Assembly: GCA_965277715.1 (NCBI GenBank)
Contig: OZ255836.1
Span: forward strand, 192,001 to 256,000
Length of the DNA stretch: 64,000 nt
Reading direction: 5' to 3'
From: Gammaproteobacteria bacterium
Lineage (GTDB): Bacteria; Pseudomonadota; Gammaproteobacteria; JBCCGL01
The notes under the pieces are model-generated. The model had not been told where the DNA came from. It worked only from the letters and a program-made list of their open reading frames with translations, and did not search any database. Position numbers and translations under genes: made by a program. Positions 8,396-63,382 of the stretch are shown here, piece after piece; positions within the stretch are counted from its first letter, which is position 1, and each line of letters starts with the position of its first letter.

Positions 8396-8581
8396 TGTGT
8401 GGGGTTTTTTTGCTTTGAAGCTACGTTTCACCAAGTTGATAGCGAATTCAATAACCAGACATCCTTTATCACGGCGATATTTTGTTGCTGGCTTTAGAAT
8501 ATACACAGTGATGCTTTAGTCTTCAGACAAAATATCTTCTGGATTAAATCAAGCGTTTTTGGGTGTGTTTGTTAATCCTGT

Positions 8582-8734
8582 TTAAAAATGCGCAAGGTGT
8601 GGCTTTATCACCTGCAACATCGCATGAAAAATTTTGGGGTTAGCCGCCACTACCTGCTTACCGTGTAACCAGTCTTCACCGCCACTGAAATCGCCAACCA
8701 GGCCACCCGCTTCACGGATGATTAAACTCCCGGC
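8582..8734 (-). repeat. Displaced duplicate of the suhB 3' end (left att-like direct repeat)
   Basis: 153 bp matching 15709-15861 with 9 substitutions by manual alignment; encodes AGSLIIREAGG...IKPHLAHF*. Confidence 0.92.
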
Positions 8735-9707
8735 AGGAGCCATTGTCACCAGCCACGCCAATTGAGTGAAGAAGAACGTTCTGTGGTATTGAATACGCTC
8801 AATAATTGGGAATTCTATGATCAACCACCAGCACAGGTCTACCACACCCTGCTCAGTCGCTGTATTTATCTCTGCTCCATCAGCACCCTGCACCGACTGC
8901 TGCGCCAGTCCGATCAGTCAGGGGAACGCCGAAGACAGCGCCCTGGGCAAGCCAACGCGGTGCCAAGGCTTTCAGCCAGCCAACCTAATGAGGTCTGGAC
9001 GTGGGACATTACAAAACTCGCCACCGTTGAGTGCGGTGTTTACTTATCGCTTTATGTAGTGATGGATTGATTCAGTCGCTATATTGTGGCTTGGATGCTT
9101 TCTCATAAAGAAAACAGCGCACTGGCACAGCCGCTCATTCAAGAGGCCAATACACGTTACGCGATTAGACCCGGCCAGTTGACGCGGCATCAAGATCGCG
9201 GGACTCCGATGACAGCACATTGCTACCTGGACTTATTGGTCGAGTTGGCAGTCACTGCAAGCCACAGCAGACCCCGCGTGAGTAATGATAACCCTCACAG
9301 TGAAAGCCAATTCTGAACACTGAAGTATCAGCCTGACTACCTGCGTCGCTTTGACCATTATCGCCATGCTAACAGGTGGTGCACTGAGTATGTCGATTGG
9401 TACAACCATCAGCACTGCCACAGTGCCTTAGAGGGCTTCACGCCTTGTCAGGTATTGACTGCACAGCACCTGTCTCTCGGTCAAGTTTGTCAACAGGCGC
9501 TGGATAAAAAGTATGCCCAACATCCAGAGCGATTCGTACATCAGCGGCCTCTTGTCAGGATGCCGCCTGCGAAGATCTACATTAACCCCGTACACGATGA
9601 ACTGGGGAATATAGAACACGATGCGCACGTCAACTTTCCAACTCTAAATCGAGCTAAATCTATGCTAACTTGAATAACTATGGCTTGAAACAGGTTGACA
9701 CCTTCCG
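8735..9707 (+). pseudogene. IS3-family transposase OrfB remnant, 5'-truncated, with in-frame stops
   Basis: PNEVWTWDITKL, HQDRGTPM, SHSRPRVSNDNPHSESQF; stops at 9068 and 9314. Confidence 0.88.
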
Positions 9708-9780
9708 TATACTTTTCCTGCCTTAAAATATTTTAATTAAGGAAAAACTCATGTTTGTGACTAATTGGGGATAAGACACC

Positions 9781-12700
9781 ATGCTATGCAGGTATACCAA
9801 CAAAGGGTTGTTGCTGATTGTATTTTCATTGCTGATAACGGCGTGTGGTGGCGAAAACGCCTCAACACTACCGCTACCACCACCTGCTGGCGATTCAACT
9901 AGCGGCTCCCAGGTCATCCTTGGCCCTATTGTCGGGGCAACAGTCAGTGCAGCGCTGGCCAGTAATACCGCCAACACTATCGAAACCACCACCACTACCG
10001 GAAGTGCCACCAACTTGAATAGTGCAGGCCGCTTTTCTCTACAGTTGACCGGTGTCACTGATGGTGTCTGGGTGCTGGTCAGTGTGACGGGGGGTAATGA
10101 CATCGATGCTGACGATAATGGCGTGCTGGATGCCACCCCCACCGCCAACCAAGGCACAATAAGGGCACTGGGCAAAGCGGCGGACTGGCGCTCTGGCAAC
10201 GCCAATATCACCGTTCTTTCAGAAATACTGGTCAACCGTCTGCTCAATGGCGGGATTGATCTCAATACCCTCACCGATAGCCAGGTCGAAAGTGGGTTGA
10301 ATGCCACCAGTGTGCAATTACTACAAACCAATGCCGATGTTAACGGTGACAATATCAGCAACTATCAGGACATCCTCGGCTTTACTCCGCAAAATCAAAA
10401 CTACCCGGCTAGCGTGGCATTGGCTGATCTCAACACTATTGCTGTCATGCTGGAAAGCGGTAACGCTGCACAAACAGATAATCTAATCACGGCGTTGCTT
10501 AATCAGCCACCGGTGGCCAATGCGGGCAGTGACCAGGTTGTTGCTGAAGGTAGCACGGTGAGCCTCAACGCCACCGGCACGGATACGGATGGCACTATCG
10601 ACCGTTATGCCTGGGTGCAAAACGCGGGCACCACTGTTACCTTAACAGGGGCTGCCACAGCGGCAGCCACCTTCGTCGCGCCCCTATTGCCCGCCAATAC
10701 TGCCACCGAGACCTTGAGTTTTACCCTGACAGTTACCGATAACCTCGGCGCCAGCGCCACAGATACAGTGGTCGTCACCCTCCAGGACAGCAATAACAAT
10801 GCACCTGTAATAACCAGCGCCAACAGCGCCAGCGTCAGTGAAAATACCACTGCTGTACTCACCCTCACCGCCAGTGACGCGGATACGACGGGTGAAACCA
10901 CCACTTACGCGCTCAGTGGCGATAACGCCAGCTTATTTACCCTTAACGGTTCGGCGTTGGCCTTCCAGAATATGCCGGATTTTGAGGTGCGTCCCTGTGG
11001 TGTCGATAACATCTGTAACCTAATAATAACCCCCAGCGATGGTACCAATACCGGGCCTGGACAGACATTTGCCGTCACCCTGGTGGATGTCAACGACAGT
11101 GCCCCGATCATTACCAGTGGCAGTACCGTTAGCGTTTTGGAAAATACCACGGTGGTACTCACCCTCACCGCCAGTGACGCGGATACGACGGGTGAAACCA
11201 CCACTTACGCGCTCAGTGGCGATAACGCCAGCTTATTTACCCTTAACGGTTCGGCGTTGGCCTTCCAGAATATGCCAGATTTTGAGGTGCGTCCCTGTGG
11301 TGTCGATAACATCTGTAACCTAATAATAACCCCCAGCGATGGTATCAATACCGGGCCTGGACAGACATTTGCCGTCACCCTGGTGGATGTCAACGACAGT
11401 GCGCCGGTAATGACCAGCGCCAGTACGGTCAGTGTCGACGAAAACACCACGGTGGTACTCACCCTCACCGCCAGTGATGCCGACAGCACCGGCGAGGCGA
11501 TAGACTTCACGCTTGGTGGTAGTGATGCATCGAGTTTTCGTCTTGTGGGTTCAGCGTTGAGTTTTAGCAGCGCGCCCGACTTTGAAACCCCGGTATGCGG
11601 TGATAATGTCTGTACGATTACCCTCACGCCCAGCGATGGGCTTAATACCGGCAGTGGGCAAACTGTAACGGTTAGTGTCCAGGATCTGAACGACACTGCG
11701 CCGGTAATGAGCAGCGCCAGTACGGTCAGTGTCGACGAAAACACCACGGTGGTACTCACCCTCACCGCCAGCGATGCCGACAGCACCGGCGAGACGATAA
11801 GCTTCACGCTTGGTGGTAGTGATGCATCGAGTTTTCGTCTTGTGGGTTCAGTGTTGAGTTTTAGCAGCGCGCCCGACTTTGAAACCCCGGTATGCGGTGA
11901 TAATGTCTGTACGATTACCCTCACGCCCAGCGATGGGCTTAATACCGGCAGTGGGCAAACTGTAACGGTTAGCGTCCAGGATCTGAACGACACTGCGCCG
12001 GTAATGACCAGCGCCAGTACGGTCAGTGTCGACGAAAACATCACGGTGGTACTCACCCTCACCGCCAGTGACGCGGATACGACAGGTGAAACCACCACTT
12101 ACGCGCTCAGTGGCGATAACGCCAGCTTATTTACCCTTAACGGTTCGGCGTTGGCCTTCCAGAATATGCCGGATTTTGAGGTGCGTCCCTGTGGTGTCGA
12201 TAACATCTGTAACCTAATAATAACCCCTAGCGATGGTATCAATACCGGGCTTGGACAGACATTTGCCGTCACCCTGGTGGATGTCAACGACAGTGCGCCG
12301 GTAATGAGCAGCGCCAGTACGGTCAGTGTCGACGAAAACACCACGGTGGTACTCACCCTCACCGCCAGTGATGCCGACAGCACCGGCGAGGCGATAGACT
12401 TCACGCTTGGTGGTAGTGATGCATCGAGTTTTCGTCTTGTGGATTCAGCGTTGAGTTTTAGCAGCGCGCCCGACTTTGAAACCCCGGTATGCGGTAATAA
12501 TATCTGTACTATCACCATTACCCCCAGTGACGGCGTCAATATTGGCAGCGCACAAACGATCACAGTAACCGTTAACGACCTCGCCGCCATCACTCTGGCG
12601 AATAGCAATATCAACGAGGGAAACAGCGGTACGACAGTAGTCAATGTCAACGTTAGCCTCGCGTCGATAGCTACCGCCAGTGTCAGTTTCAGTGTGAGCG

Positions 12701-13620
12701 ACGGCACAGCGACTACAGCAGATAATGACTACAGCGTAGCCAACAGCACCGGCACCCTTAACTTTACCGGTGGCTCGACAACCGCAGTGGTAGCTATCAC
12801 CATCAATGGCGACACACAAGTAGAGAGCGATGAAACCCTCAGCATTGTACTAAGTAACCCCATCAACGCCGAACTACAGGGCATTAGCACAGCAATATTG
12901 ACGATCAACAACGATGATTCAGCAGCCCCAACGCTTAACGACACCGGCGTTGTGTTTGGTGCAGACACCAACCTGAACAACAGTGGTTGCACCAGCGCCG
13001 ATACGGTTATCGCCCAGCAGGATTGTTCGCGGGGCCGGGATGTCACCAATAACGACGCCAGCGATGGCCACGCGGGGTTTAGTTTCACCAAAATCAGCAG
13101 CACAGGTCAACCCCTGGCGGCTAGTGCTAGCGCTTGGGCCTGTACACAGGACAATATCACCGGTCTGATGTGGGAGGTAAAAACCAATGATAACGGCCTA
13201 CACGATAGGGGTGATATGTACACTTGGTATAGCACCGACAGTAGCAATAATGGTGGCAATGCGGGTACCGAAAATACTACAACCAGCTGCTTTGGCTACA
13301 ATAATGCCGATGCAGCGACCTTTTGCAACACCCAGGCGTATGTGGCACGCATTAACGCGGCGGGCCTATGCGGTTTTACTGATTGGATCTTGCCGGGCCG
13401 TGAACAACTGCGCTCGATAGCCAATCGCAATAGTTTTAATCCGGCTATCGATACCGCTTATTTTCCAAATACCCGATCCGATAATTTTTATTGGTCGTCG
13501 TCGCCCCTCGCCAACAACAATGCCAACGCGTGGGACTTCTTCTTCTTCGACGGCAGCGATAGCAACTTCTTCAGCAAGAGTAGCAACCATTTTGTTCGTG
13601 TTGTTCGCGCCAGTCAGTAG
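9781..13620 (+). CDS. Large surface lipoprotein: PKD-like domain, six cadherin-like repeats, Calx-beta domain and C-terminal DUF1566 (Lcl/CLec) domain; DGR target 1
   Basis: Lipobox LLITA-C; NQPPVANAGSDQ; repeated PDFE and D(V/L)ND-AP motifs; INEGNSG..DGTAT..GDTQVESDET; DNITGLMWE..LCGFTDWILP..YWSSS..VRVVR. Confidence 0.9.
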   Translation: MLCRYTNKGLLLIVFSLLITACGGENASTLPLPPPAGDSTSGSQVILGPIVGATVSAALASNTANTIETTTTTGSATNLNSAGRFSLQLTGVTDGVWVLVSVTGGNDIDADDNGVLDATPTANQGTIRALGKAADWRSGNANITVLSEILVNRLLNGGIDLNTLTDSQVESGLNATSVQLLQTNADVNGDNISNYQDILGFTPQNQNYPASVALADLNTIAVMLESGNAAQTDNLITALLNQPPVANAGSDQVVAEGSTVSLNATGTDTDGTIDRYAWVQNAGTTVTLTGAATAAATFVAPLLPANTATETLSFTLTVTDNLGASATDTVVVTLQDSNNNAPVITSANSASVSENTTAVLTLTASDADTTGETTTYALSGDNASLFTLNGSALAFQNMPDFEVRPCGVDNICNLIITPSDGTNTGPGQTFAVTLVDVNDSAPIITSGSTVSVLENTTVVLTLTASDADTTGETTTYALSGDNASLFTLNGSALAFQNMPDFEVRPCGVDNICNLIITPSDGINTGPGQTFAVTLVDVNDSAPVMTSASTVSVDENTTVVLTLTASDADSTGEAIDFTLGGSDASSFRLVGSALSFSSAPDFETPVCGDNVCTITLTPSDGLNTGSGQTVTVSVQDLNDTAPVMSSASTVSVDENTTVVLTLTASDADSTGETISFTLGGSDASSFRLVGSVLSFSSAPDFETPVCGDNVCTITLTPSDGLNTGSGQTVTVSVQDLNDTAPVMTSASTVSVDENITVVLTLTASDADTTGETTTYALSGDNASLFTLNGSALAFQNMPDFEVRPCGVDNICNLIITPSDGINTGLGQTFAVTLVDVNDSAPVMSSASTVSVDENTTVVLTLTASDADSTGEAIDFTLGGSDASSFRLVDSALSFSSAPDFETPVCGNNICTITITPSDGVNIGSAQTITVTVNDLAAITLANSNINEGNSGTTVVNVNVSLASIATASVSFSVSDGTATTADNDYSVANSTGTLNFTGGSTTAVVAITINGDTQVESDETLSIVLSNPINAELQGISTAILTINNDDSAAPTLNDTGVVFGADTNLNNSGCTSADTVIAQQDCSRGRDVTNNDASDGHAGFSFTKISSTGQPLAASASAWACTQDNITGLMWEVKTNDNGLHDRGDMYTWYSTDSSNNGGNAGTENTTTSCFGYNNADAATFCNTQAYVARINAAGLCGFTDWILPGREQLRSIANRNSFNPAIDTAYFPNTRSDNFYWSSSPLANNNANAWDFFFFDGSDSNFFSKSSNHFVRVVRASQ
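10795..12588 (+). repeat. Intragenic tandem array of two cadherin-repeat types (300-bp A, 297-bp B) in the order A-A-B-B-A-B
   Basis: Near-identical DNA units: A carries TTYALSGDNASLF..PCGVDNICNL, B carries FTLGGSDASSF..PVCG(D/N)N(V/I)CTI. Confidence 0.9.
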
Positions 13621-13632
13621 CCTTGGTTTTTG
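13489..13632 (+). repeat. DGR variable region VR1 plus conserved 3' IMH-like tail
   Basis: Aligns to 14579-14724; differences sit at codon positions 1-2 of NNC/NNT codons; shared tail TTTGTTCGTGTTGTTCGCGCCAGYCAGTAGCCTTGGTTTTT. Confidence 0.88.
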
Positions 13633-13651
13633 GTGAGGTGAGGGTGCCGAA

Positions 13652-14127
13652 ATGAATCCGTTTATGCCGACGATTGTCCGAGATGTCGAGCGCCTTAGCT
13701 ATTGGGGGCATTACAGTCATGCTAATAGTTTTCGCCTACGTCAGCAACTGATGCAGCAATTTCCCTGGTTACCCGTTTTATTTTCAAGCCATCAGGGAAA
13801 GCTGATACGCAAGTATTACCCACCCAAACAACTTCATTGGTGTGAAGGCAGGGCTAATCTTGTCAGTCAGTTGCAGTATTTTCGCCACTTTTACCCACAG
13901 GTGTTGTTGTGTTAGTACAGTTGGGCTATCAGATGTTGCTGGTAACGCCTGATATGGCGATCGGTGATATCTTGCAAAAAGCCCCGCGTTATCAATGGAA
14001 CAAAGCCATAAAACCCACGCAATCGGCAGTATGGGTTAGTGAACAAGGCTATCTTCAAAACGGTGGTCGCCACCGTATCGCCACCCATTTTACCAACTAT
14101 ATTTCCCCCCTCAATAGTTATGACTAA
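13652..14127 (+). pseudogene. DGR core remnant: Avd-like N-terminus fused to a DGR RT C-terminus and MutS-I-like (MSL) tail; frameshifted near 13910
   Basis: MNPFMPTIVRDVERL resembles an Avd start; SYWGHYSHANSFRLRQ..FPWL resembles a DGR RT thumb end; FRHFYPQVLL/LVQLGY resembles MutS-I; no YxDD motif. Confidence 0.7.
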
Positions 14128-14146
14128 CCACCTGGAGGCAGTGACC

Positions 14147-14710
14147 ATGCCCGGATTAGAACACCCCAAAGTAACGCAATTACGTTACGCGCTAGTATTA
14201 CTGCTCTGCTGTGTGGCAAGCGGTATCGCTAGCGCAACGTGCAATAGCAATATCGTGCGTACAGCGCCAGACAACCGCTACCAGATTCAAGCAGGGGGCG
14301 CAGAGGTGCTGGATACACAAACCAATTTGATCTGGCAACGCTGTAGTCTAGGGCAAACCTTTAATAATCTAGGCACCGCAGAGACCAGCGATGATCGCTG
14401 TGATAACAGCGCCACAGCTTACACCTGGCAGGGGGCGTTACAGGCAGCGCAGGGTATTGCGACTAATAGTGGTCAGGCGTGGTTTTTGCCGAATATCAAC
14501 GAGCTGGCCAGTCTTGTCGAGCTGGCGTGTAGCCCGGTTATCAATGAAACCGTTTTTCCTGACACACCATCGTCTACTTATTGGTCGTCGTCGCCCGTCG
14601 CCTCCAACAATATCGCCGCGTGGATCCTCGACTTCAGCAGCGGCGGCGATGACTTCAGCAGCAAGAATGACAACAGCCGTTTTGTTCGTGTTGTTCGCGC
14701 CAGCCAGTAG
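14147..14710 (+). CDS. Secreted DUF1566 (Lcl/CLec) protein; DGR target 2
   Basis: GGAGG RBS at 14134, hydrophobic signal peptide, VLDTQTNLIWQRCSLGQ, WFLPNINELASLV, YWSSS..AW..F..G..VRVVRASQ. Confidence 0.9.
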   Translation: MPGLEHPKVTQLRYALVLLLCCVASGIASATCNSNIVRTAPDNRYQIQAGGAEVLDTQTNLIWQRCSLGQTFNNLGTAETSDDRCDNSATAYTWQGALQAAQGIATNSGQAWFLPNINELASLVELACSPVINETVFPDTPSSTYWSSSPVASNNIAAWILDFSSGGDDFSSKNDNSRFVRVVRASQ

Positions 14711-14724
14711 CCTTGGTTTTTTGG
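14579..14724 (+). repeat. DGR variable region VR2 plus IMH-like tail
   Basis: Same length and frame as VR1, with the same invariant scaffold codons and 3' tail. Confidence 0.88.
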
Positions 14725-14782
14725 AAGGGGAGTGTAAAAGGTGGAGGGTTGAACAATTTGGATACACCCATAAGCCCACTTT

Positions 14783-14830
14783 CTAGCCCCCATGTATTTA
14801 CTTGTATGCAAGCTAATACAAGGTAGGCGG
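14783..14830. repeat. Degenerate copy of a 48-bp palindromic element
   Basis: CTAGCCCCCATGTATTTACTTGTATGCAAGCTAATACAAGG; homologous to 27438-27485 and 52586-52633. Confidence 0.7.
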
Positions 14831-14990
14831 TGCTCCATTGTATATATGGAGTATTTCGACAATGCCATGTGGCTCGTCGATATGGTAGTACACATGATAA
14901 CGCCGGTATACCAGCATACGTATGTGCGGATACTGTGCGTATCGTGCCACGTTCGCATGAGGAAAAAGCGGTAGCGTATCTTCAATAAAA
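14813..14990 (-). pseudogene. RelE/ParE-type toxin C-terminal fragment (not in the ORF track)
   Basis: Manual translation: FIEDTLPLFPHANVARYAQYPHIRMLVYRRYHVYYHIDEPHGIVEILHIYNGAPPTLY*; no start codon. Confidence 0.65.
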
Positions 14991-15044
14991 CAGACACCCT
15001 AGCATGAGAAGAGTTTTCGCCAATTGTGCGTGATGTGATTCTCT

Positions 15045-15132
15045 TTGACAGAATAGTTTGCAAAAAACGGGCGCAAAAAAGAGGCAAATCGGCTTTTCTG
15101 TAGTAGAGCAGTCTTGAACCCGACAGGCTCCT
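15045..15132. repeat. Solo end of a dispersed MITE-like repeat
   Basis: AAATCGGCTTTTCTGTAGTAGAGCAGTCTTGAACCCGACAGGCTCCT matches the reverse complement of 52879-52967. Confidence 0.75.
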
Positions 15133-15177
15133 CGCCCTGATATCGCGCTTTTGTCAAATTCACGTTACAGTACCTAG

Positions 15178-15423
15178 ATGGCTACTATGATTTCTGAAGT
15201 TTATGAGGCGTTCCGTGTCGTAGGCGTACCGGAAGATAAGGCCCGTGAGGCGGCAGAGGCTCTTTCTGCTGAGAGTTTGGCGACTAAAGGGGATATTCAA
15301 TCGCTTAAAGAACAAACGAAACCTGACATTGCCCGATTGGAGACTAAAATTACCCTGTTGCAATGGATGGTCGGTCTGGTGATTGTGGTTGAAATATTGC
15401 CTTTGCTGAAGACGCTGTTTTAG
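15178..15423 (+). CDS. Small coiled-coil protein with C-terminal TM helix (DUF1640/CCDC90-like)
   Basis: EVYEAF..GVPEDKAREAAEA, LATKGDI, LLQWMVG pattern. Confidence 0.7.
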   Translation: MATMISEVYEAFRVVGVPEDKAREAAEALSAESLATKGDIQSLKEQTKPDIARLETKITLLQWMVGLVIVVEILPLLKTLF

Positions 15424-15447
15424 GTTCTTATTAACCATTGAAATAGA

Positions 15448-15530
15448 CGCAACTTCAAGAGCCTCAACCGCCTTATTCGTTTTTTTGCGCTAATCAGTAG
15501 CCTTGGTTTTTTTGGGGAGGGGTGTGAAGG
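15448..15530 (+). repeat. Eroded third VR 3' end plus IMH-like tail, with no target gene
   Basis: CGC AAC TTC AAG AGC CTC AAC CGC CTT ATT CGT TTT TTT GCGCT AAT CAG TAG CCTTGGTTTTTTTGG parallels the VR1/VR2 ends. Confidence 0.7.
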
Positions 15531-15708
15531 GTTGGCGTGATATTTGTGGTGCACAAATCCAGTTCAGTTTGTTTTGTTCGACCGGACTTCCTAAGCCAAT
15601 TCAAAATTTCTACTAGCTTATGAATGCCCCATTTCCCTTTTTCTCCTGGGCAGGAAATAGTATTAATTATGAGATGAGGCCATGGAAATATTCATATATT
15701 GATCATAT

Positions 15709-16497
15709 TTAAAAATGCGCAAGGTGTGGTTTTATCACCTGCAACATAGCATGGAAAATTTTGGGGTTGGCCGCCACTATCTGCTTACCGTGTAACCAAT
15801 CTTCACCGCCACTGAAATCGCCAATTAAGCCACCCGCTTCACGGATGATTAAACTCCCGGCGGCAATGTCCCAGGGGTTTAACCCGGTTTCCCAAAAGCC
15901 GTCGAGCCTGCCAGAGGCAACATAAGCCAGATCAAGCGCCGCCGCACCCGGTCGCCGGATACCGGTGGTGTGCTGGATAAAATCACGTAACAATGCCATG
16001 TAATGGTCGGTATTTTGTGTTTCAAGGTAGGGAAAACCCGTGCCAAGCAGGCTGTTTTCCAGTGTGCGGTGGTTGGATACGCGCAGGCGTTTGTTATCCA
16101 GCCAGGCGCCGCGCCCGCGTGAAGCGGTGAATAGTTCCTGGCTGACTGGATCATAGATAACTGCCTGTTCGAGCTTGCCGGATTTTTGCAATGCAATGGA
16201 TACGGCAAATTGTGGGAATCCGTGCAGGTAGTTGGTCGTGCCATCCAGTGGGTCGATAATCCACACGTAATCACTGTTACCCGATGCACCGGATTCCTCT
16301 GCCAAAACCGCGTGGTCGGGGTAGGACTGGTGTAGCGTCTGGATGATTTTTTCCTCGGCCTGCCGGTCGACATTCGAGACAAAATCATTGTGTTGTTTTT
16401 TTTCTATCGTCAGTGTATCGATGCGTTCGAATTGACGCATAATAACGTTGCCAGCGGCGCGGGCAGCGCGGATGGCAATATTCAACATAGGATGCAT
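15709..16497 (-). CDS. suhB: Inositol monophosphatase / Nus factor SuhB
   Basis: MHPMLNIAIRAAR, WIIDPLDGTTNY, RRPGAAALDLAYVA, PWDIAAG; divergent from trmJ. Confidence 0.96.
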   Translation of the reverse strand: MHPMLNIAIRAARAAGNVIMRQFERIDTLTIEKKQHNDFVSNVDRQAEEKIIQTLHQSYPDHAVLAEESGASGNSDYVWIIDPLDGTTNYLHGFPQFAVSIALQKSGKLEQAVIYDPVSQELFTASRGRGAWLDNKRLRVSNHRTLENSLLGTGFPYLETQNTDHYMALLRDFIQHTTGIRRPGAAALDLAYVASGRLDGFWETGLNPWDIAAGSLIIREAGGLIGDFSGGEDWLHGKQIVAANPKIFHAMLQVIKPHLAHF

Positions 16498-16555
16498 GTC
16501 GCAGACAACAGGTGATTTGGAAGGGGCGGCATGATAGCAGAATTTGAGGTGATCA

Positions 16556-17278
16556 ATGCAGCAAAACGTGCGTTTTGTGCTGGTGGAAACATCGCACCCC
16601 GGCAATATCGGTGCCGCCGCCAGGGCGATGAAAAATATGCAGTGCAGTCAGCTTTACCTGGTGCGGCCCCGGTTTTTTCCACACGCCGATGCCACTGCGC
16701 GCGCAGCGGGTGCAGATGATATTCTGGCGCAGGCTCAGGTGTGTGAATCGCTGGAGCAGGCTTTGCAGGGCTGTCATCTGGTGTATGGTGCCTCGGCGCG
16801 ATTGCGCAGTATTGCCTGGCCATTGGAAACCCCGCGCCAGTGTGCCAGTGCTATCGCTGCAAACCGTGAACAAAGCACCCCGGCAATTGTATTTGGTCGC
16901 GAGCGCACGGGCTTGACCAATGAAGAGCTCGATCTATGCCACAAGATGCTGCATATCCCCTGTAACCCGGACTACAGTTCACTCAACATTGCGGCGGCAT
17001 TGCAAGTGGTTGCGTATGAACTCTTTGTGGCAAATGCCGAACCGGAGGTACAAACTGACCACTATGAAACCGGTGAGCGCGCTGCCACGCTTGAAGAAAT
17101 GACGCTGTTTTACGCACACCTTGAGCGCACTATCACCGCAACACAGTTTCTGGACCCGGATAACCCCCGCCAACTGCCGCGTCGTCTACGTCGTTTTTTT
17201 AATCGCAGTAAACCGAGTAACGTGGAGCTTAATATTCTGCGCGGTATTTTAACTTCGGTCGAAAAACACACAGGCTAA
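16556..17278 (+). CDS. trmJ: tRNA C32/U32 2'-O-methyltransferase (SPOUT)
   Basis: SHPGNIGAAARAMKNM, FGRERTGLTNEEL, SSLNIAAA, ELNILRGIL. Confidence 0.93.
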   Translation: MQQNVRFVLVETSHPGNIGAAARAMKNMQCSQLYLVRPRFFPHADATARAAGADDILAQAQVCESLEQALQGCHLVYGASARLRSIAWPLETPRQCASAIAANREQSTPAIVFGRERTGLTNEELDLCHKMLHIPCNPDYSSLNIAAALQVVAYELFVANAEPEVQTDHYETGERAATLEEMTLFYAHLERTITATQFLDPDNPRQLPRRLRRFFNRSKPSNVELNILRGILTSVEKHTG

Positions 17279-42591: not shown

Positions 42592-45384
42592 TTGAACGCA
42601 GTTGAAATAGAAGAGGCGATAACCAATTTATCCGAGCAAAATTTTGACCCGGAGGCTTTTCCTTACGCTTTTTTAGAGGCATTTGGCAATAAAGCCACCA
42701 CAATAAAACGGCTTAAAACTGGCTCCTCGAATGCGTCAGATATTAAGGGTGGCGTTTTACAGCGGAATAATATCCACCTTTCGGTCTGTCCCGAAGGTTG
42801 TGTAACGGAGACCTTGAGTAAACTCAAAGCCAGTTCTGAAACCAGCAAGAAAAAAGTTAAATTTGTGCTGGCAACTGACGGCATTGATCTGGAAGCGGAA
42901 GATCTCATATCGGGTGAAACGGTTGCGTGTGCCTACAAAAATTTTCCCGATCACTTCGGTTTTTTCTTGCCATTGGCGGGTATCACCACCGTTAAGCAAA
43001 TCCGCAATAACCCAATTGATATTCAGGCAACCAGCCGCTTAAACCGCCTCTATATTGAATTGTTGAGTACTAACGAGGAGTGGGCTACCAACGAACGTCG
43101 TCACGATATGAACCAGTTGATGACGCGCCTGATATTCTGCTTTTTTGCGGAAGACACTGATATCTTTCTCGGCGACAATCTGTTTACCGCAACCATTGAG
43201 CAGATGACGGACAGTCGTTCTGGCAACACGGGTTTTGTATTGGGTGAAATCTTTCGAGCTATGGATACACATCCCGATAAGCGGGCGGAAGCCAATTTGC
43301 CACGATGGGCTGATGCGTTTCCGTATGTAAACGGCGGGCTTTTTTCTGGCTGTAAAGAGGCGCCCAAATTCAGCCGGATTGCGCGCTCATACTTGCTACA
43401 TGCTGGTAGCCTGAATTGGAAAGAGATTAACCCCGATATTTTCGGCTCAATGATTCAGGCGATTGCCGACGAAGACGAACGCGGCGAACTGGGTATGCAC
43501 TACACCAGCGTGCCCAATATTCTTAAGGTGCTTAATCCTTTGTTTTTGGATGATCTGCGTGAGCAGTTAAAGCTGGCGGGGGATAGCGCCCGTAAGCTGC
43601 TCAATTTACGCAAACGCCTTTCCAATATTCGCGTGTTTGACCCGGCTTGTGGTTCGGGCAACTTTTTAGTGATTGCCTATAAAGAAATGCGCGCTATTGA
43701 AAACGAGATTAATCAAAGGCGAAAGGATGGCCATCAAAAAACAGCGATTCCGTTAACGAATTTTCGCGGCATAGAGCTTAGAGACTTTCCGGCCGAAATA
43801 GCCCGATTGGCATTGATTATCGCCGAATACCAGTGTGACGTGCGCTACCTTGGCCAAAAAGATGCCTTAGCCGAATTTCTGCCACTGAATGCTGTGAACT
43901 GGATTACTTGTGGCAATGCTTTGCGCCTGGATTGGCTGTCTATTTGTCCGCCAACAGGGAAAGCGGTGAAGCTGATGGCAGAGGATTTGTTGGAAATGCC
44001 GCTGGATCAAGTCGATATTGATTTTAAAAATGAAGGAGGGGAAACTTATATTTGTGGTAATCCTCCTTATCTAGGCAGTACTTGGCAGTCTAAGGAACAA
44101 AAAGCTGACTTGGAAAAGATATTTGGACATCGTACTAAAAGTTGGAAGTCGCTGGACTATGTTGCGGGCTGGTTTATGAAAGCCGCTGACTACGGAAAAT
44201 ATACCAACTCAGTTAGTGCTTTTGTTAGCACTAACTCTATTTGCCAAGGGCAGCAAGTTCCTATTCTCTGGCCATTAATTTTTAAAACAGATCATGAAAT
44301 CAGCTTTGCATATACATCTTTTAAATGGGCAAATCTTGCTAACCATAATGCAGGAGTAACTGTAGTGATTGTTGGCATTGCAAATCAGGCTAACAAGGTA
44401 CGGCGTTTATTTTCTACAGATGAAAATGGTCAGACTATTGAAAAGAAAGCAGGCAACATTAATGCTTATTTAGTCGTAGGGGCTAATGTCGAAGTAATAA
44501 AATTAGCTAGCCCCATAAGTATAGTAGGCACAATGGATCGAGGTAATGGCGCTACAGATGGCGGGAATTTGCTTTTAGATAAAATGTCTCTTCATGCTAT
44601 GAATTTAACTCTAAAACGACAAAATAATTTTATACGTCCGTTTTATGGTTCTGCTGAGTATATAAGAGGTCTACAACGATTTTGTCTATGGATTAGCGAT
44701 GAAGATGCTGAAGAATCCAAGAAAATAGAACCTATCAATGAACGAATAGCAGCAGTTAAAACAATGAGACTCGCGAGCAAAAAAGAAGCGACTCGTAAAG
44801 GCGCAGTTTATCCTCATCGTTTTGATGAAAAAAGGCAGATAGGAGATGAAACAGTTTTAATAATACCTCGTGTGTCATCTGAAACCAGAGAGTACCTTCC
44901 GGTTGGATTTTTACCCCCCGAATCAATTGTTAGCGATAGTGCCTTTGCCCTATATGATTCGCCACTTTGGAATATGGCTCTAATTGCATCAAAACTTCAT
45001 ATAGTTTGGATTGCGACGGTATGCGGCAAGTTAAAAACAGATTATCGTTATTCAAATACTATGGGCTGGAATACTTTTCCAGTCCCCAAACTAACTGAAA
45101 AAAATAAAAAAGACCTAACTCGCTGCGCAGAGGATATTCTCCTTACACGTGAAGCACACTTCCCCGCCACCATTGCCGATCTTTACGATCCAAAAAACAT
45201 GCCCGCAGACCTACGACATGCACACGACCGTAATGACGAAGTGCTGGAACGCATATATATCGGGCGACGATTTAAAAACGACACCGAACGCCTTGAAAAA
45301 CTCTTTGATCTTTACGCCAAGATGACGGCCACCACACATACAACAGTGAATAAAACCCGTAAAACCAACAAGAAGGTATCCTGA
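42592..45384 (+). CDS. MmeI-like N6-adenine DNA methyltransferase (YeeA/DnmA-like)
   Basis: FPYVNGGLF, GMHYTS, DPACGSGNF (motif I), GNPPY (motif IV), C-terminal TRD with YRYSNT. Confidence 0.9.
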   Translation: MNAVEIEEAITNLSEQNFDPEAFPYAFLEAFGNKATTIKRLKTGSSNASDIKGGVLQRNNIHLSVCPEGCVTETLSKLKASSETSKKKVKFVLATDGIDLEAEDLISGETVACAYKNFPDHFGFFLPLAGITTVKQIRNNPIDIQATSRLNRLYIELLSTNEEWATNERRHDMNQLMTRLIFCFFAEDTDIFLGDNLFTATIEQMTDSRSGNTGFVLGEIFRAMDTHPDKRAEANLPRWADAFPYVNGGLFSGCKEAPKFSRIARSYLLHAGSLNWKEINPDIFGSMIQAIADEDERGELGMHYTSVPNILKVLNPLFLDDLREQLKLAGDSARKLLNLRKRLSNIRVFDPACGSGNFLVIAYKEMRAIENEINQRRKDGHQKTAIPLTNFRGIELRDFPAEIARLALIIAEYQCDVRYLGQKDALAEFLPLNAVNWITCGNALRLDWLSICPPTGKAVKLMAEDLLEMPLDQVDIDFKNEGGETYICGNPPYLGSTWQSKEQKADLEKIFGHRTKSWKSLDYVAGWFMKAADYGKYTNSVSAFVSTNSICQGQQVPILWPLIFKTDHEISFAYTSFKWANLANHNAGVTVVIVGIANQANKVRRLFSTDENGQTIEKKAGNINAYLVVGANVEVIKLASPISIVGTMDRGNGATDGGNLLLDKMSLHAMNLTLKRQNNFIRPFYGSAEYIRGLQRFCLWISDEDAEESKKIEPINERIAAVKTMRLASKKEATRKGAVYPHRFDEKRQIGDETVLIIPRVSSETREYLPVGFLPPESIVSDSAFALYDSPLWNMALIASKLHIVWIATVCGKLKTDYRYSNTMGWNTFPVPKLTEKNKKDLTRCAEDILLTREAHFPATIADLYDPKNMPADLRHAHDRNDEVLERIYIGRRFKNDTERLEKLFDLYAKMTATTHTTVNKTRKTNKKVS

Positions 45385-47435
45385 TGACGGCGCATAAAGC
45401 TATCCCCTCAGTTTCCGTTAAATACGCCTGCAACGGCAGCTCAAAAAAATCTAATGAGCTGGGTATGCGCGTTATGCAGGAGCGCGCCTTTGAAAAGCGC
45501 GGCGAACAATACTTACTGATTAAATCGCCGCCTGCATCGGGTAAAAGTCGCGCTTTAATGTTTATCGCGCTGGATAAACTGCACCATCAAAATTTAACAA
45601 AAGCCATTATCGTAGTACCTGAAAAATCCATTGGCTCCAGTTTTAATAATGAGCCATTAACTGAAAACGGATTCTATTGGGATTGGGCGGTTGTACCAAA
45701 ATGGAACTTATGCAACGCCCCCGGCGAAGAGGGTGGCAAGGTTAATACTGTAAAAAACTTTCTTGATAGTGATGACCGCATTCTGGTTTGCACCCATGCT
45801 ACCTTTCGCTTTGCCGTAGATCGCTATGGTGTCGGTGTATTTGATAATTGCCTGGTTGCTATTGATGAATTTCACCACGTTAGCGCTAACCCCGATAACA
45901 AACTGGGTGCCCAACTCGGTCAGTTTTTGGTGCGCGATAAAGCGCATATTGTGGCAATGACGGGTTCTTATTTTAGAGGGGACGCCGAGGCCGTCCTTGC
46001 CCCGCACGATGAGGCGAGTTTTGATACCGTCACTTATACCTACTATGAGCAATTAAATGGCTACGAGTACCTTAAAACGCTGGATATCGGTTATTACTTT
46101 TATTCCGGCAACTATACAGATGAAATTCTGAGTGTTCTTAACCCCCATGAAAAAACGATTATTCATATTCCCAATGTAAACTCACGGGAAAGTAGTAAAG
46201 ACAAGATTAAAGAAGTCGAACATATTATCGAAGAACTAGGTAGCTGGAATGGCATCGATGCCGATACGGGGTTTCACTTGGTCAAAACCAGTGCAGGCAA
46301 ATTAATCAAAATAGCGGATTTAGTGGATGACGACCCCGCTAAACGCGATAAGGTTTCGGCGGCTTTAAAACGCCCCGAGGCAAAAAATGATCGCGGCCAT
46401 GTCGATATTATTATCGCCCTTGGCATGGCCAAAGAAGGCTTTGACTGGATTTGGTGTGAGCACGCCTTGACGATTGGCTATCGTTCCAGTCTCACCGAGA
46501 TCATTCAGATTATTGGCCGTGCCACCCGCGACGCCGAGGGAAAGACACACGCACGCTTTACCAATCTTATAGCAGAACCGGACGCCGCAGAAGAAGCGGT
46601 GACCGATGCCGTGAATGACACATTAAAGGCGATAGCAGCCAGCTTATTGATGGAGCAGGTGCTGGCACCCAAATTCAACTTTACACCCAAGGATAACCAG
46701 AACGGCCCTATGGCGGGTTATGGCTACGGTGATAATGGTTATAACCCTGATGGCAGCAATGTTGGCTTTAATGAGCCAACTGGTCAGCTCCAGATGGAAA
46801 TAAAAGGCCTCGCTGAGCCAAAGAGCGAAGATGCGCGGCGCATCTGTCAGGAAGACTTAAATGAAGTGATTACCGCCTTTGTTCAGGATAAGACTTCGCT
46901 TGAACGCGGCCTGTTCGATGAGGAAATGATTCCTGAAGAATTAACGCAGGTTCGGATGGGTAAAATTGTAAAAGATAAATACCCGGAACTGGACGAGGAA
47001 GATTGTGAAGCGGTCAGACAGCACGCTATTGCCGCACTTAACCTGACTCAGAAAGCGAAAGAAATGGTTAACCAAAGCGATCAGACAGAGCAAGGAAGCA
47101 GTACCGCTTTTATCGATGGTGTCAGAAAGTTTGCGATGAATGTACGCGACCTTGATATTGACCTGATTGATCGTATTAATCCATTTAAACAGGCATACGC
47201 GATTCTCGCCAAATCCATGAGTGAAGAAAGCCTCAAACAAGTGGCTATGGTCATCAACGCGAAAAAGCTATCACTCACTGAGGATGAGGCCAGAGAGCTA
47301 ACTTCGCGTGCGATCAAATTTAAGAAAGAGTGCGGACGCCTGCCCGAATTGACCTCTCCTGATCCTTGGGAGAAACGCATGGCTGAAGGTATCGCTTTCC
47401 TTCAGCGTAAAGTCGCGGAGGAAAGCAATGACTGA
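45384..47435 (+). CDS. SF2 helicase/ATPase (YeeB-like)
   Basis: SPPASGKS Walker A, DEFH, MTGS, QIIGRATR; start overlaps the MTase stop. Confidence 0.88.
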   Translation: MTAHKAIPSVSVKYACNGSSKKSNELGMRVMQERAFEKRGEQYLLIKSPPASGKSRALMFIALDKLHHQNLTKAIIVVPEKSIGSSFNNEPLTENGFYWDWAVVPKWNLCNAPGEEGGKVNTVKNFLDSDDRILVCTHATFRFAVDRYGVGVFDNCLVAIDEFHHVSANPDNKLGAQLGQFLVRDKAHIVAMTGSYFRGDAEAVLAPHDEASFDTVTYTYYEQLNGYEYLKTLDIGYYFYSGNYTDEILSVLNPHEKTIIHIPNVNSRESSKDKIKEVEHIIEELGSWNGIDADTGFHLVKTSAGKLIKIADLVDDDPAKRDKVSAALKRPEAKNDRGHVDIIIALGMAKEGFDWIWCEHALTIGYRSSLTEIIQIIGRATRDAEGKTHARFTNLIAEPDAAEEAVTDAVNDTLKAIAASLLMEQVLAPKFNFTPKDNQNGPMAGYGYGDNGYNPDGSNVGFNEPTGQLQMEIKGLAEPKSEDARRICQEDLNEVITAFVQDKTSLERGLFDEEMIPEELTQVRMGKIVKDKYPELDEEDCEAVRQHAIAALNLTQKAKEMVNQSDQTEQGSSTAFIDGVRKFAMNVRDLDIDLIDRINPFKQAYAILAKSMSEESLKQVAMVINAKKLSLTEDEARELTSRAIKFKKECGRLPELTSPDPWEKRMAEGIAFLQRKVAEESND

Positions 47436-48615
47436 GAAGTCAAACAAAGCATTGCTTGAGGAATTGGGCGTTGGTTCAGTTCCTACCAAAAAGAAGACCC
47501 GTTCACCACGCGAAGAACGCGTTATAGCAGGGTTTGAGGAAATCCAACGTTTTATCGAAGAGCACGGCCGTCTCCCGATGCACGGTGAAGATAAGGATAT
47601 ATTTGAACGGTTGTATGCCATGCGTCTGGATAAAATCCTTTCGCAAGAAGAGTATAGAAGCCTTGTTGCGGATATTGATAAGCAAGGGCTACTGAAAGAT
47701 TGGTCACGCATAGCAGAGCCGCAAGCAGAATATCGTAGTGACAAAGAGCTACTTACCGAGCTTGGTATTAATGCGCCAAAAGAAGGTGAAATTACGTTTT
47801 TAAAACATGTTAAACCGCGTGTGGAAGTAAGAGCAGCGGAGGAAATAGGCAGTAGAATACCGTGCGAGAATTTTGACGGTTTTAAACCCATTTTTGATGC
47901 TGTTCAAGAAGAGTTGAAAAGTGGTGTACGCATAACACGCCCCTTTAGAGATAATGCCGAAATCCGACAGGGAGATCTTTTTATATTATCCGGGCAGAAG
48001 GCCTATGTGGCTGAGGTAGGTGAAGAATTTGTTACCGAGTACGACCGCAAAGACAGCCGCCTGCGCGTTATTTACGACAATGGAACCGAAAGCGATATTT
48101 TATTACGCTCTTTGCAAAGAGCACTTAATAAGGACAAAGCGGGACGAAGAATAACCGATAAATCACTTGGCCCACTATTCTCAGGTGACGCTGCTAATGA
48201 AGATTTGGCGAGTGGTACAGTCTATGTTTTACGAAGTAAATCGGAACACCCAACAATACGGGAAAACAGAGCGATTATTCATAAACTGGGGGTTACGGGT
48301 GGAAGCGTGGAAAAGCGCATTGCCAATGCAAAACTGGATCCAACGTATTTAATGGCTGAGGTCGAAGTCGTGGCAACTTACGAACTTTACAATATCAATC
48401 GAACTAAGCTTGAGCATATCTTTCACCGATTCTTTGAACAGGCCAAACTTGATATAAAAATCCATGACCGTTTTGGCACCCTGGTAACACCAAGAGAGTG
48501 GTTTTTGGTTCCTTTGTTTGTTGTCGATGAAGTCGTTGAAAAGATTAAGGACGGCACTATCGGTCAATACTCTTATGCCATGGAGTCAGCCAAGCTGATT
48601 TTGAATCAACACTAA
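47428..48615 (+). CDS. GIY-YIG (T5orf172) nuclease (YeeC-like)
   Basis: GTVYVLRS..HKLGVTGGSVEKRI..LEHIFHRFF..PREWF. Confidence 0.85.
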   Translation: MTEKSNKALLEELGVGSVPTKKKTRSPREERVIAGFEEIQRFIEEHGRLPMHGEDKDIFERLYAMRLDKILSQEEYRSLVADIDKQGLLKDWSRIAEPQAEYRSDKELLTELGINAPKEGEITFLKHVKPRVEVRAAEEIGSRIPCENFDGFKPIFDAVQEELKSGVRITRPFRDNAEIRQGDLFILSGQKAYVAEVGEEFVTEYDRKDSRLRVIYDNGTESDILLRSLQRALNKDKAGRRITDKSLGPLFSGDAANEDLASGTVYVLRSKSEHPTIRENRAIIHKLGVTGGSVEKRIANAKLDPTYLMAEVEVVATYELYNINRTKLEHIFHRFFEQAKLDIKIHDRFGTLVTPREWFLVPLFVVDEVVEKIKDGTIGQYSYAMESAKLILNQH

Positions 48616-58064: not shown

Positions 58065-58918
58065 AAACATATTGACGTTTCACATGGGTAACCAAAGAAA
58101 GGCGCATGCCAAGGCGAGCATGCTCCGATAGTTCCGCTTCAACTTATCATATCGGGTGGCAATCGCTCGAAAATGCTTCAATCGAGCAAACACATTTTCA
58201 ACCAGGCGTCGGTATTTATATAAACACCAGTCGATATCCTCATCGCCTATTTTTGAGTTGCTTCGCCGTGGAATAACCGGAACGGACTTTTTCTGTCTAA
58301 TCTGATGGCGTAACGCCTCGCTGTCATACCCTTTGTCAGCCACCACATACTCGCTTTTTGGCAAGGCATCAATCAATTCAGGAGCTGTTGTGGAGTCATT
58401 AACCTGCCCAGCAGTGATATCAAATAATACGGGCAACCCAAACCCATCTACAATCATGTGTATTTTCCTTGTTTTCCCGCCTCGACTGTTGCCAATGGCT
58501 TGATTTTCATGCCCTCTAGCCCCTGCGCTATGTTGGTGTGCCTTCACAATACTTCCATCAATAAATGCCCATTCTTGATCGGGTTCTTCGACAAGCGCAT
58601 GGAAAATGTTCATTAACTTGCCTTTCGATGACCAGTCATTAACGCGTTTATAAACACTATTCCAGTCACCAAATGACGCCGGTAAATCTCGCCACGGACA
58701 CCCCACACGCAATCGATAAAGAATTCCTTCAACGACTAACCGTAACTTCGGCTTGTCATAAATGCCTTCTTTAAGCATGCTACTCCGTAGCTTCGACCAA
58801 TACCCATCGTTGAGCAATAATCGGGACATGGCAAACTCGTATTTGTTGTTTTTCTCACATCCAATGATACGAGTTTGCCTTTTGTTTCAAAAGCTTATAG
58901 CCAAACGTCAACAGGCCC
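58065..58918 (-). mobile_element. IS5-family element with one intact and one eroded IR
   Basis: IR GGGCCTGTTGACGTTT (reverse complement at 58903-58918) followed by TAG; other end AAACATATTGACGTTT after CTA. Confidence 0.85.
58080..58829 (-). CDS. IS5-family transposase
   Basis: GCPWRDLP, IDGSIVKAHQH, ADKGYDS, YKYRRLVEN. Confidence 0.93.
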   Translation of the reverse strand: MSRLLLNDGYWSKLRSSMLKEGIYDKPKLRLVVEGILYRLRVGCPWRDLPASFGDWNSVYKRVNDWSSKGKLMNIFHALVEEPDQEWAFIDGSIVKAHQHSAGARGHENQAIGNSRGGKTRKIHMIVDGFGLPVLFDITAGQVNDSTTAPELIDALPKSEYVVADKGYDSEALRHQIRQKKSVPVIPRRSNSKIGDEDIDWCLYKYRRLVENVFARLKHFRAIATRYDKLKRNYRSMLALACAFLWLPM

Positions 58919-59290
58919 TAGCACCATTGATTTGTGTTTATCGCTGTTTCCTTGGGCCGATTTTCGAACGACCAAAGGTGCGATTAAATTGCATGTTGGT
59001 TTGAATCATGCAGGATACCTACCCGAATTTGTGTCGATTACCGAGGGTAAAGTACATGATGTTACTATTGGTAAGCTGTTGAGTTTCCCTAAAGGTAGTA
59101 TCATCGCCATGGATAAGGGTTACAATGACTACAATTGGTATAAGCAATTGACTAACAAGGGAATATTCTTTGTCACGCGACTCAAGAAGAATGCTAAATA
59201 CAGGGTTGTCAGTCGTCGTTCGGTATTGAAAGATAAAGGGCTAAGCTGTGATCAGACCATTGAATTTACGGGTGTTCAAACATCAAAAAA
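58919..59290 (+). pseudogene. IS4-family transposase internal fragment
   Basis: STIDLCLSLFPWADFRTTKGAIKLH, MDKGY, FFVTRLK; cut by IS5 on the left and fused to toxin DNA on the right. Confidence 0.85.
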
Positions 59291-59502
59291 ATGGGGCTAC
59301 GCACGGTTATTATCATACTGCATCAAACTTAACAGTAAACACGCAAGTAAGTGCAGGGCAAGTGATAGGGAGCAGCAATTTTTCAGGTCGAGCTACAGGG
59401 TTGCATCTTCACTATACGATTCAGACAGGAGCTACAAGAGCCACGAGAATTGATCCCTTACCATACTTGAGAAATCTAAATCCAAGTACACCAGGTCAAT
59501 GA
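59291..59502 (+). pseudogene. Orphan toxin tip with an M23-peptidase C-terminal half
   Basis: GYYH..VSAGQVIG..SGRATGLHLHY..RIDP. Confidence 0.65.
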
Positions 59503-59512
59503 GGGTATAGGT

Positions 59513-59959
59513 ATGTGCAGAGTTTTTGTAATAATTTTATTTTTTGTGTCTGTAAATGCAATAGCACTAGGCGCGAAATTTGAAGAGCCTAGTGATGCTT
59601 CGGTTTCCGTGGTTAAACAGTTTGGCTTGGGACAATTTGAATTTACTAACAACGGTAATTTTTCTGGTGTTATTAATATTAAAAATCATGTGTCTGGCAA
59701 GAGCTTTAAAGTATTTTCTGGCAGATATCTTAATGCACAGAAAGGGGATAAAAAAAGCTTTGTTTTAATAACGAGTATTATCGGTGATAAGCTGAATAAA
59801 GAATCACTATATGAATTTTATACCAAAACTATAGAAAATATAGTATATGAGGATAAAAAAATATACGTAATTTTCAAACGCGAAACAGAAATGTATGGAT
59901 GGATAGAATGGCGAAATAATGAATTTACATTTGTCTTATTTCGAGACCCAGAATTATGA
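59513..59959 (+). CDS. Putative periplasmic immunity protein
   Basis: AT-rich, signal peptide, directly after the M23 tip. Confidence 0.6.
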   Translation: MCRVFVIILFFVSVNAIALGAKFEEPSDASVSVVKQFGLGQFEFTNNGNFSGVINIKNHVSGKSFKVFSGRYLNAQKGDKKSFVLITSIIGDKLNKESLYEFYTKTIENIVYEDKKIYVIFKRETEMYGWIEWRNNEFTFVLFRDPEL

Positions 59960-60067
59960 TAAGTGTCGTGGATATCTATGGACAAAAAATCATGGGCATC
60001 TATTATTTGAAGAACCATAGCGTAGCGTGTCATTTTCTGATCGTATAAATTCCCAAATTATCGATGG

Positions 60068-60595
60068 GCGGTTACTACTGCGGTGATTGAGGGTACTGCC
60101 GCTGAGCTTGGCGGGGGTAAGTTTGCAAACGGGGCACAAACCGCCGCGTTTGCGCATTTGTTTAATGCGGAGATGAGTAACCTGAAGAAAATAATAGACA
60201 GTACGAGTGAAGCGATAGGTCATTATTTCAATGGCAATGGCGAATAGGTAGAGCTTGGGCCTAATACAAAAATGGCCTTGCGAAATCACCCGCTGGTGCA
60301 ACGCCAATCTGAAGTTTTACGAACAGAAACAGCCAATCACCTTAATGATAATTTGAGCGTTGAGTTAAGAGGAGAGGTTTATCATGTAGGAAAAACAAGA
60401 GTGGATTTTTCAACTGCTTGCCAATCTGGCTCTTGTACAACGACTTATATAGGGTTCTCCAATGACGGGTTCTGGGGTCCTAGAGCCCCTGTGGGATTTG
60501 GTGATGGAATTGGAGGTGGTTGGGAAATTCCTGGTGGTATTGGATATCGTTATAATCCATATAGATGGTCAGAAACGTACCCGGATAGGTTTTAA
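60068..60595 (+). pseudogene. Orphan Rhs-type toxin C-terminus with an internal TAG
   Basis: ELGGGKFANGAQTAAFAHLFNAE junction; TAG at 60245 where the paralog at 63383-63861 has CAG. Confidence 0.75.
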
Positions 60596-60596
60596 G

Positions 60597-61798: not shown

Positions 61799-61827
61799 AA
61801 ACCCACGTGTAGCGTGCTATTTTTTGG

Positions 61828-63277: not shown

Positions 63278-63382
63278 TTAGGACATGCAGAGCGCCGAGG
63301 TAAATCGGCAAGAGATCGGAGGTGAAAGTCCTCTACACGGTAAGTTTAAGGTCAAGGAAGGCAGGTGTTGAATTACTGGTTT

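Follow-up and report, generated by a model that had tools for sequence, protein, structure and literature searches.

The 3′ end of the gene icd harbours the integrated phage 21. The e14 element of Escherichia coli K-12 uses the same gene: icd runs into the prophage, which supplies the gene end, and the displaced C-terminal fragment, icdC, stands at the far side; icd and icdC differ mostly by synonymous changes, with a few conservative replacements (PMC13626634). Among the diversity-generating retroelements (DGRs), DUF1566 targets, either short or adhesion-extended, form a recognised class, for example in the Legionella DGR (PMC5758913). Here we analysed a 64,000-nucleotide (nt) stretch of a sponge-associated gammaproteobacterium (contig OZ255836.1 of assembly GCA_965277715.1, positions 192,001 to 256,000; hereafter the window), in which a ~7-kb block of foreign-looking, partly broken genes lies behind suhB. 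The block is bracketed by two copies of the suhB 3′ end. With moderate confidence, we interpret it as an integrative island, now decayed, that entered in the manner of e14 at icd but with suhB as a new target gene.

The suhB repeat and its occurrence in sponge metagenomes

The features that carry this interpretation are the following.

8572..8734, minus strand: orphan copy of the suhB 3′ end, with 50 codons, the stop at 8582-8584 and ~10 nt more; the attR-like side on the integration model
15699..15861, minus strand: repeat copy that forms the working suhB 3′ end; the attL-like side on the integration model
15709..16497, minus strand: intact suhB, inositol monophosphatase family, 262 amino acids (aa), Inositol_P E 4e-74 (Pfam)

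The repeat search of the window returned a direct repeat of 163 nt, whose two copies (8572-8734 and 15699-15861) are 93% identical, lie in the same orientation and span the last 50 codons of suhB, its stop codon and ~10 nt beyond. Inside the 153-nt core (8582-8734 versus 15709-15861) there are exactly nine substitutions, eight of which are transitions. A sequence-only reading of this DNA had described 153-bp direct repeats of the suhB 3′ end with nine mostly synonymous substitutions, and the repeat search and the alignment confirmed this, seven of the nine being synonymous. In the pairwise alignment with 40 nt of flank on each side, the similarity ended sharply at the inner edges, 8734 and 15861; on the outer side it was gone within ~10 nt past the stop codon, where 7 of 10 bases agree. 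A 38-mer control pattern had no match in 100 shuffles of the window; therefore, a repeat of 153 nt with 94% identity lies far outside what chance would give.

With its likely start MHPMLNIAIRAARAAG, suhB occupies 15709-16497 and encodes 262 aa. The left copy matches positions 223-261 of the 271-position Inositol_P profile (Pfam), within the open reading frame (ORF) 8582-8893. Upstream of suhB, trmJ and cysE are arranged divergently, which is also the case in most of the 80 genome loci of relatives listed. The left flank of the island holds the gene for a thiamine-pyrophosphate (TPP) enzyme, and no tRNA gene is present within the 64-kb window.

The nine differences comprise seven synonymous changes and two Ile/Val replacements, and the orphan copy contains no stop or frameshift. 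Over 32.7 synonymous and 117.3 non-synonymous sites, the synonymous divergence (dS) is 0.25 and the non-synonymous divergence (dN) is 0.017, giving a dN/dS of 0.068. Under neutral decay in place, ~78% of the changes would be expected to alter the protein, and the binomial probability of at most two amino-acid changes among nine is 0.0005; a simulation that kept the 8:1 transition bias and allowed no stop gave P = 0.005. These values indicate that both copies diverged inside working suhB genes of separate lineages and, therefore, that one of them was imported; this is the strongest single result of the analysis. The copies share no identical run longer than 33 nt, and this run sits at the repeat's inner edge, the place expected for a crossover core, which it would fit.

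We also compared contigs, assembled with k = 31, from four sponge-metagenome runs; the stretch is present in four studies, one of which is possibly the source of the window itself. Depth was observed in 30 of 30 bins of the window in each of the four runs, and outside its repeated parts the island had a depth like that of the flanks (168-212 in run X6, ~950-1160 in run X2). As this flank-like depth was seen in every run, the island, including the insertion sequence (IS) remnant described below, is fixed in all the samples examined; scattered substitutions set the strains apart from the window. The contigs break at the shared 33-nt run, the pieces either ending at 8731-8734 and beginning at 15832, or overlapping 8705-8731 and 15832-15858, and thus they fit the integrated state and an empty site plus a circle alike. 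In all four runs, the contig graph would also accommodate an excised circle. In X2, 8 nt are missing (15694-15702) directly after the suhB stop, where the right repeat has its outer edge.

Decayed content of the island

The content between the repeats is typical mobile-DNA debris: an IS3 pseudogene, DGR-type target genes and a weak ParE remnant.

8735..9673, plus strand: IS3-family transposase pseudogene, one reading frame with two in-frame TGA, directly adjoining the orphan suhB fragment
9781..13620, plus strand: 1279-aa surface-protein gene with an N-terminal hydrophobic leader, six cadherin-like repeats, Calx-beta and a C-terminal Lcl_C/DUF1566 domain
13486-13620, plus strand: variable region 1 (VR1), DGR-type, the last ~45 codons of the 1279-aa gene
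13652..14127, plus strand: two small overlapping ORFs of 87 aa and 72 aa, no family match
14147..14710, plus strand: 187-aa Lcl_C/DUF1566 protein with a leader peptide, Lcl_C E 1.2e-28
14576-14710, plus strand: variable region 2 (VR2), the last ~45 codons of the 187-aa gene
14813..14998, minus strand: possible ParE-toxin remnant, C-terminal half only (PF05016 E 0.036, profile positions 43-84 of 89, below cut-off)
15178..15423, plus strand: 81-aa coiled-coil ORF with a hydrophobic tail, phrog_17872 E 0.006
15481..15532, plus strand: decayed third copy of the variable-region tail, from the repeat search and the tail alignment

The IS3 pseudogene matches the NCBIfam profile NF033516 in three colinear pieces (positions 151-240, 242-321 and 323-368 of 369), none of which reaches the curated cut-off, and Pfam gave weak rve matches in it. 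The first ~120-150 of the 369 profile positions (roughly the first third) and the left end of the IS are gone, and a full-length transposase match was not obtained. Judging by these matches, we regard the piece as the remnant of an IS3-family member and not as a working member. The contig depth over 8836-9669 was 2-3 times that of the flank, which points to further IS3 copies elsewhere in the genome. The window also holds, at 440-2014, a 524-aa ISNCY-family transposase (NF033594, E 4.5e-123) with an extra C-terminal helix-turn-helix region; it was considered as kin of the IS3 remnant and is unrelated by profile searches.

Both DUF1566 genes of the island are real, with Lcl_C matches in Pfam at E 5e-25 for the 1279-aa protein and at 1.2e-28 for the 187-aa protein. 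The six cadherin-like repeats of the former, ~300 nt each, fill 10705-12498. VR1 and VR2 are repeats of one another, and their conserved tail continues past the stop. The differences between them fall on codon positions 1, 2 and 3 in the numbers 16, 17 and 4, and the third letter is kept in 18 of the 22 differing codons (AAC, TCC, GCC, ATC, GAC, TTC, AGC and similar). Each gene thus has what is expected of a DGR target, a variable region at the 3′ end of a DUF1566 gene with the variation in the first two codon letters, and this inverted codon-position pattern reads as the footprint of DGR adenine mutagenesis on AAY codons. The decayed copy at 15481-15532 is what remains either of the DGR template repeat or of a variable region that would be the third. 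No reverse transcriptase (RVT) domain was found by Pfam in the 58 ORFs of the window or in the debris frames, and apart from this decayed tail copy the 64-kb window contains no intact template repeat; adenine specificity is, therefore, not directly readable.

In the contigs of X1 and X2, which come from two other studies, VR1 carries at most one substitution. The pieces over 12466-13619 have nine (X1) and four (X2) differing letters, of which eight and three, respectively, lie upstream of 13280. VR1 should vary under a live DGR; its near-unchanged state makes the DGR look frozen or switched off and fits the missing reverse transcriptase. Around VR2, X2 differs by indels at 14529 and 14567 and by one contig that runs from 14602 to 13565. 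Further differences in the contigs include 5 nt missing at 13632, in the tail after VR1, in X1, X2 and X4, and a 23-nt tandem insertion at 14059 in X2. Within the 1279-aa gene, one extra G behind 10731 in X1 and one extra C behind 12520 in X2 were seen, in one contig each. If real, they would be frameshifts and could mean that this gene is falling apart in some strains; alternatively, the extra bases may be contig errors arising in the 300-nt repeats.

Domain scans with Pfam covered 19 + 39 window ORFs and, at E up to 1, 17 frames from the debris region; they were extended with PHROGs, frames being at least 30 aa long. The region of the ParE-like remnant also matched phrog_2455 (E 0.006); as evidence for a phage origin of the cargo, PHROGs gave only matches of this order (E ~0.006). 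Scans of IMG/VR with the 81-aa ORF, the small DUF1566 protein and the 87-aa ORF returned nothing, or matches of 20-34 residues only. The look-alikes of the 81-aa ORF are CCDC90-like/DUF1640 clusters (feature score 0.91-0.92), and they serve as a lead only, as do those of the 87-aa ORF in the protein atlas. A 38-nt stretch at 14783-14820 occurs once in the window and is common to several contigs in all four runs, which then continue into unrelated sequence on both sides; loose ends were found around it, at 14783 and 14818-14832, and some continuations begin with GGGGTC. It looks like a short multi-copy element of the genome.

Much of what the sequence-only reading had placed between the repeats was borne out, namely the IS3 remnant abutting the left repeat (the three colinear NF033516 pieces, in a frame starting at 8735), both DUF1566 genes, and the absence of any integrase, none being found among the 19 + 17 island and flank ORFs and frames of at least 30 aa. 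Two of its terms have to be narrowed. The "DGR cargo" stands for target genes with the variable-region pattern and does not extend to a reverse transcriptase or an intact template repeat, which were not found in the window ORFs scanned, and of the "toxin debris" only the weak, below cut-off ParE match (E 0.036) is left.

Origin of the island

The e14/icd type of insertion predicts direct repeats of the target gene's 3′ end around the inserted DNA and an intact target gene whose two ends have separate histories, and the locus shows both. The island could have arisen as follows. A circular mobile element carrying a look-alike of the last ~150 bases of suhB would have recombined with the chromosomal suhB near codon 212, in a Campbell-type, integrase-mediated event. 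In this way, suhB would have stayed intact, finished by the element's own gene end (15709-15861) with the cargo behind it, and the host's original suhB end (8582-8734) would have been displaced by 7.1 kb, still adjoining the original downstream DNA. Decay in place would have followed, in which the integrase and most of the backbone were lost, an IS3 copy inserted and was then truncated by a deletion now ending at the orphan fragment, and the DGR was stripped of reverse transcriptase and template, with its two target genes left frozen. We infer the circular intermediate, the integrase, the identity of the host copy and the order of decay from the present layout. The earlier proposal that suhB served as the attachment site (attB) of a now-eroded element stands as far as the gene-end repeat, the intact suhB and the imported copy are concerned; an integrase may have been the agent, but neither one nor a remnant of one was found among the ORFs of at least 30 aa scanned.

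To place this layout among relatives, we used a SuhB-based scan of genome contigs and a scan of metagenome contigs with the 50-aa C-terminus, 80 loci being listed from each. Among the matches listed in both scans (160 loci), the closest SuhB has 65% identity, and a second suhB end at the protein level was found in 0 of the 160; six DNA self-matches of 16-32 nt in these loci, considered as second ends, were judged to be chance. Genes downstream of suhB were surveyed in the 71 genome loci that have at least 1.5 kb beyond it, using 111 ORFs from 70 loci (the 5.5-kb ORF of locus L047 and the second ORFs of loci repeating secF-secD were left out). The commonest genes there are secF-secD, then rhodanese and mutS, and an integrase was found in 0 of the 111 ORFs from these 70 loci. 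With secF-secD as the commonest downstream genes and no second suhB end in the 160 loci, the layout of the window is derived.

A class-level sample comprised 400 genomes (three of them unpublished), of which 399 were scored and 347 had a match. Two suhB matches were present in 9 of the 399; in the eight that were re-examined, the second matches, in open frames of 256-309 aa, are full-length paralogues. In two cases the best match falls in a short open frame (62 and 71 aa), the 62-aa one at a contig end. A fragment-only copy of suhB was found in none of the 399 scored gammaproteobacterial genomes. The closest genome of the sample, G264 (SuhB 79% identity), has trmJ-suhB followed by a 297-aa ORF and by secF- and secD-sized ORFs, with no repeat; its ortholog of the TPP enzyme (66% identity) is on another contig and has no neighbours in common. 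A search among the relatives of G264 gave nothing closer, and SuhB relatives at 82-84% identity in a large protein database are found only on contigs of 1.3-4.5 kb. In the suhB locus of G264 (L162), an ORF-poor stretch ~7 kb downstream of suhB (14804-16666) contains two families of ~40-nt direct repeats, four copies each, 270-620 nt apart. A survey of 5,426 complete E. coli genomes found the terminal 221 nt of suhB a single time in each. The remark of the sequence-only reading that suhB is not known as a common integration hotspot is in agreement with these surveys, which gave no literature precedent and no second copy in the 160 loci, the 399 genomes or the 5,426 E. coli genomes.

Several observations weigh against a decayed e14/icd-type island or lend it no support. 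In 8735-15708, Pfam and PHROGs found no gene or remnant of an integrase, recombinase, excisionase, replication, transfer or phage function among ORFs of at least 30 aa, and in particular no integrase adjoins either repeat on the inside (19 + 17 ORFs and frames scanned), where an e14-like element would carry it. No empty site is present among the 160 listed loci (at most 65% identity) or in G264, which at 79% is too distant, and G264 shares only trmJ-suhB with the window and no gene order downstream. The outgroup does not tell which copy is native, as G264 agrees with the left copy at five and with the right copy at four of the nine differing sites, and among the closest proteins (82-85% identity) one of the two Ile/Val sites favours each copy. 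Two sequences at 94% identity may well share an identical run of 33 nt by chance. Excision left no trace in the contigs, whose sole joint (X2) links VR1 and VR2; as they break at the 33-nt run, they count neither for nor against it. Outside this genome, 22 phage records have SuhB-like sequences (54-98% of the protein covered), none of which is a C-terminal fragment only; IMG/VR scans with SuhB, as a single protein and as an alignment, gave no support for suhB as an attachment site, and full-text literature searches returned no paper naming suhB or inositol monophosphatase as one. PMC3479022, taken up as a candidate precedent, is irrelevant. In base composition, island and flanks are alike. Finally, the inner edge of the left copy is the junction with the truncated IS and need not mark the crossover; it may be the endpoint of a deletion or of an illegitimate joint, which keeps an integrase-free route open.

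Such a route, the main rival, which we hold to be possible though rather doubtful, would begin with DNA of a related lineage that carried its own suhB end and downstream DNA. Homologous recombination within suhB would have anchored this DNA, and its other end would have been joined illegitimately (or a circularised fragment would have entered by a single RecA crossover); the illegitimate joint would be the place where the truncated IS3 meets codon 212 of the host suhB. The lack of an integrase in the island, the flank-like composition and a left copy that stops exactly at an internally truncated IS, resembling an illegitimate joint or a deletion endpoint, all speak for it; a dS of 0.25 fits a donor related to the host, and similarity that ends just past the stop is expected if only the coding sequence was common to the two. 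However, a donor close enough for homologous anchoring should have left similarity past the stop as well, and there it fades within ~10 nt. The homology is also short and imperfect, and a 153-nt stretch at 94% identity with identical runs of at most 33 nt would be a poor substrate for RecA. To our knowledge, duplications of this form are rarely documented without an integrase, whereas integrase-made ones are common.

The truncated IS sets the inner boundary of the left copy, which could once have been longer, and the gene order left of the fragment differs from that of G264. Both would suit a left fragment that is all that survives of a second suhB, formerly complete and acquired horizontally, after an IS3-associated deletion; the two copies would then not mark the ends of a single inserted element, and foreign DNA may extend left of 8572. 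We find this unlikely; it requires a foreign suhB to have arrived, by coincidence, 7 kb downstream of the native gene and in its orientation, and the 399 scored genomes hold no fragment copy. Duplication of the suhB end in place, with decay of the orphan and accumulation of cargo between the copies, would be the simplest route to a direct repeat, yet the synonymous-dominated differences (seven of nine, with two Ile/Val changes and an orphan free of stops and frameshifts; P 0.0005-0.005) reject it, and we give it hardly any credence. Very improbable, too, is an assembly artefact in which the copies were mis-joined across the 33-nt run and the true state is a junction of the TPP-enzyme gene with suhB plus a separate 7.1-kb circle: the k = 31 contig breaks in all four runs allow both pairings, but island and flank have like depth in each run, no replication gene was found in the island, and any read longer than ~60 nt spans the 33-nt run together with distinguishing bases, the contig of the window being 4.29 Mb long.

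The decayed e14/icd-type island remains the explanation that we favour. A bolder extension of it, which we offer as a long shot, is that suhB could be the attachment site of an undescribed family of sponge-symbiont elements ferrying DGR-diversified adhesins between lineages. The present copy might then still exit through the 33-bp core, by a trans-acting integrase or RecA, leaving a chimeric, intact suhB as for e14/icd.

Significance and comparison with described systems

Elsewhere in the window, 42592-48615 carries a 930-aa MmeI-type restriction-modification fusion with all five MmeI domains, then a 683-aa DEAD-box helicase-like ORF and a 395-aa T5orf172/MUG113 (GIY-YIG-like) ORF, which probably make up a defence island. 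Six consecutive same-strand ORFs of 132-300 aa without a Pfam match occupy 59513-63861, immediately behind pieces of IS5-type transposases (58080-59453).

If the favoured interpretation is true, suhB joins the protein-coding genes whose 3′ ends serve as landing sites of mobile DNA, and a sponge symbiont would have gained DGR-type variable adhesin genes horizontally and then let the diversifying machinery decay. A variable region that is frozen across host samples fits a settled symbiosis. As a practical warning, the shared run of 33 bases breaks short-k-mer assemblies exactly at the suhB locus. Otherwise, this is an ordinary kind of genome scar, at a target gene for which no precedent was found.

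Among the DGRs, the closest match is the cellular, Legionella-type DGR ("category d", with the CLec2 lipoprotein target LdtA). In contrast to it, neither a reverse transcriptase, nor an accessory gene, nor an intact template repeat was found in the 64-kb window. The target genes themselves are alike: such targets (PMC5758913) carry DUF1566 at the C-terminus, begin with a leader peptide and are short or adhesion-extended, and their variation is limited to the first two letters of NNC/NNT codons and is followed by a conserved tail. The island as a whole departs from e14 in its target, suhB, for which no precedent was found, and in its cargo, which consists of DGR targets and not of prophage genes; moreover, e14 keeps its integrase and still excises, whereas here no integrase was found and no excision was seen. 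The two loci nevertheless share their architecture (PMC13626634 for e14): a protein-coding housekeeping gene is kept whole by an inserted alternative 3′ end, a pseudogene at the far end preserves the original C-terminal fragment, and the two copies differ, as the two suhB ends do, mainly by synonymous and a few conservative changes.

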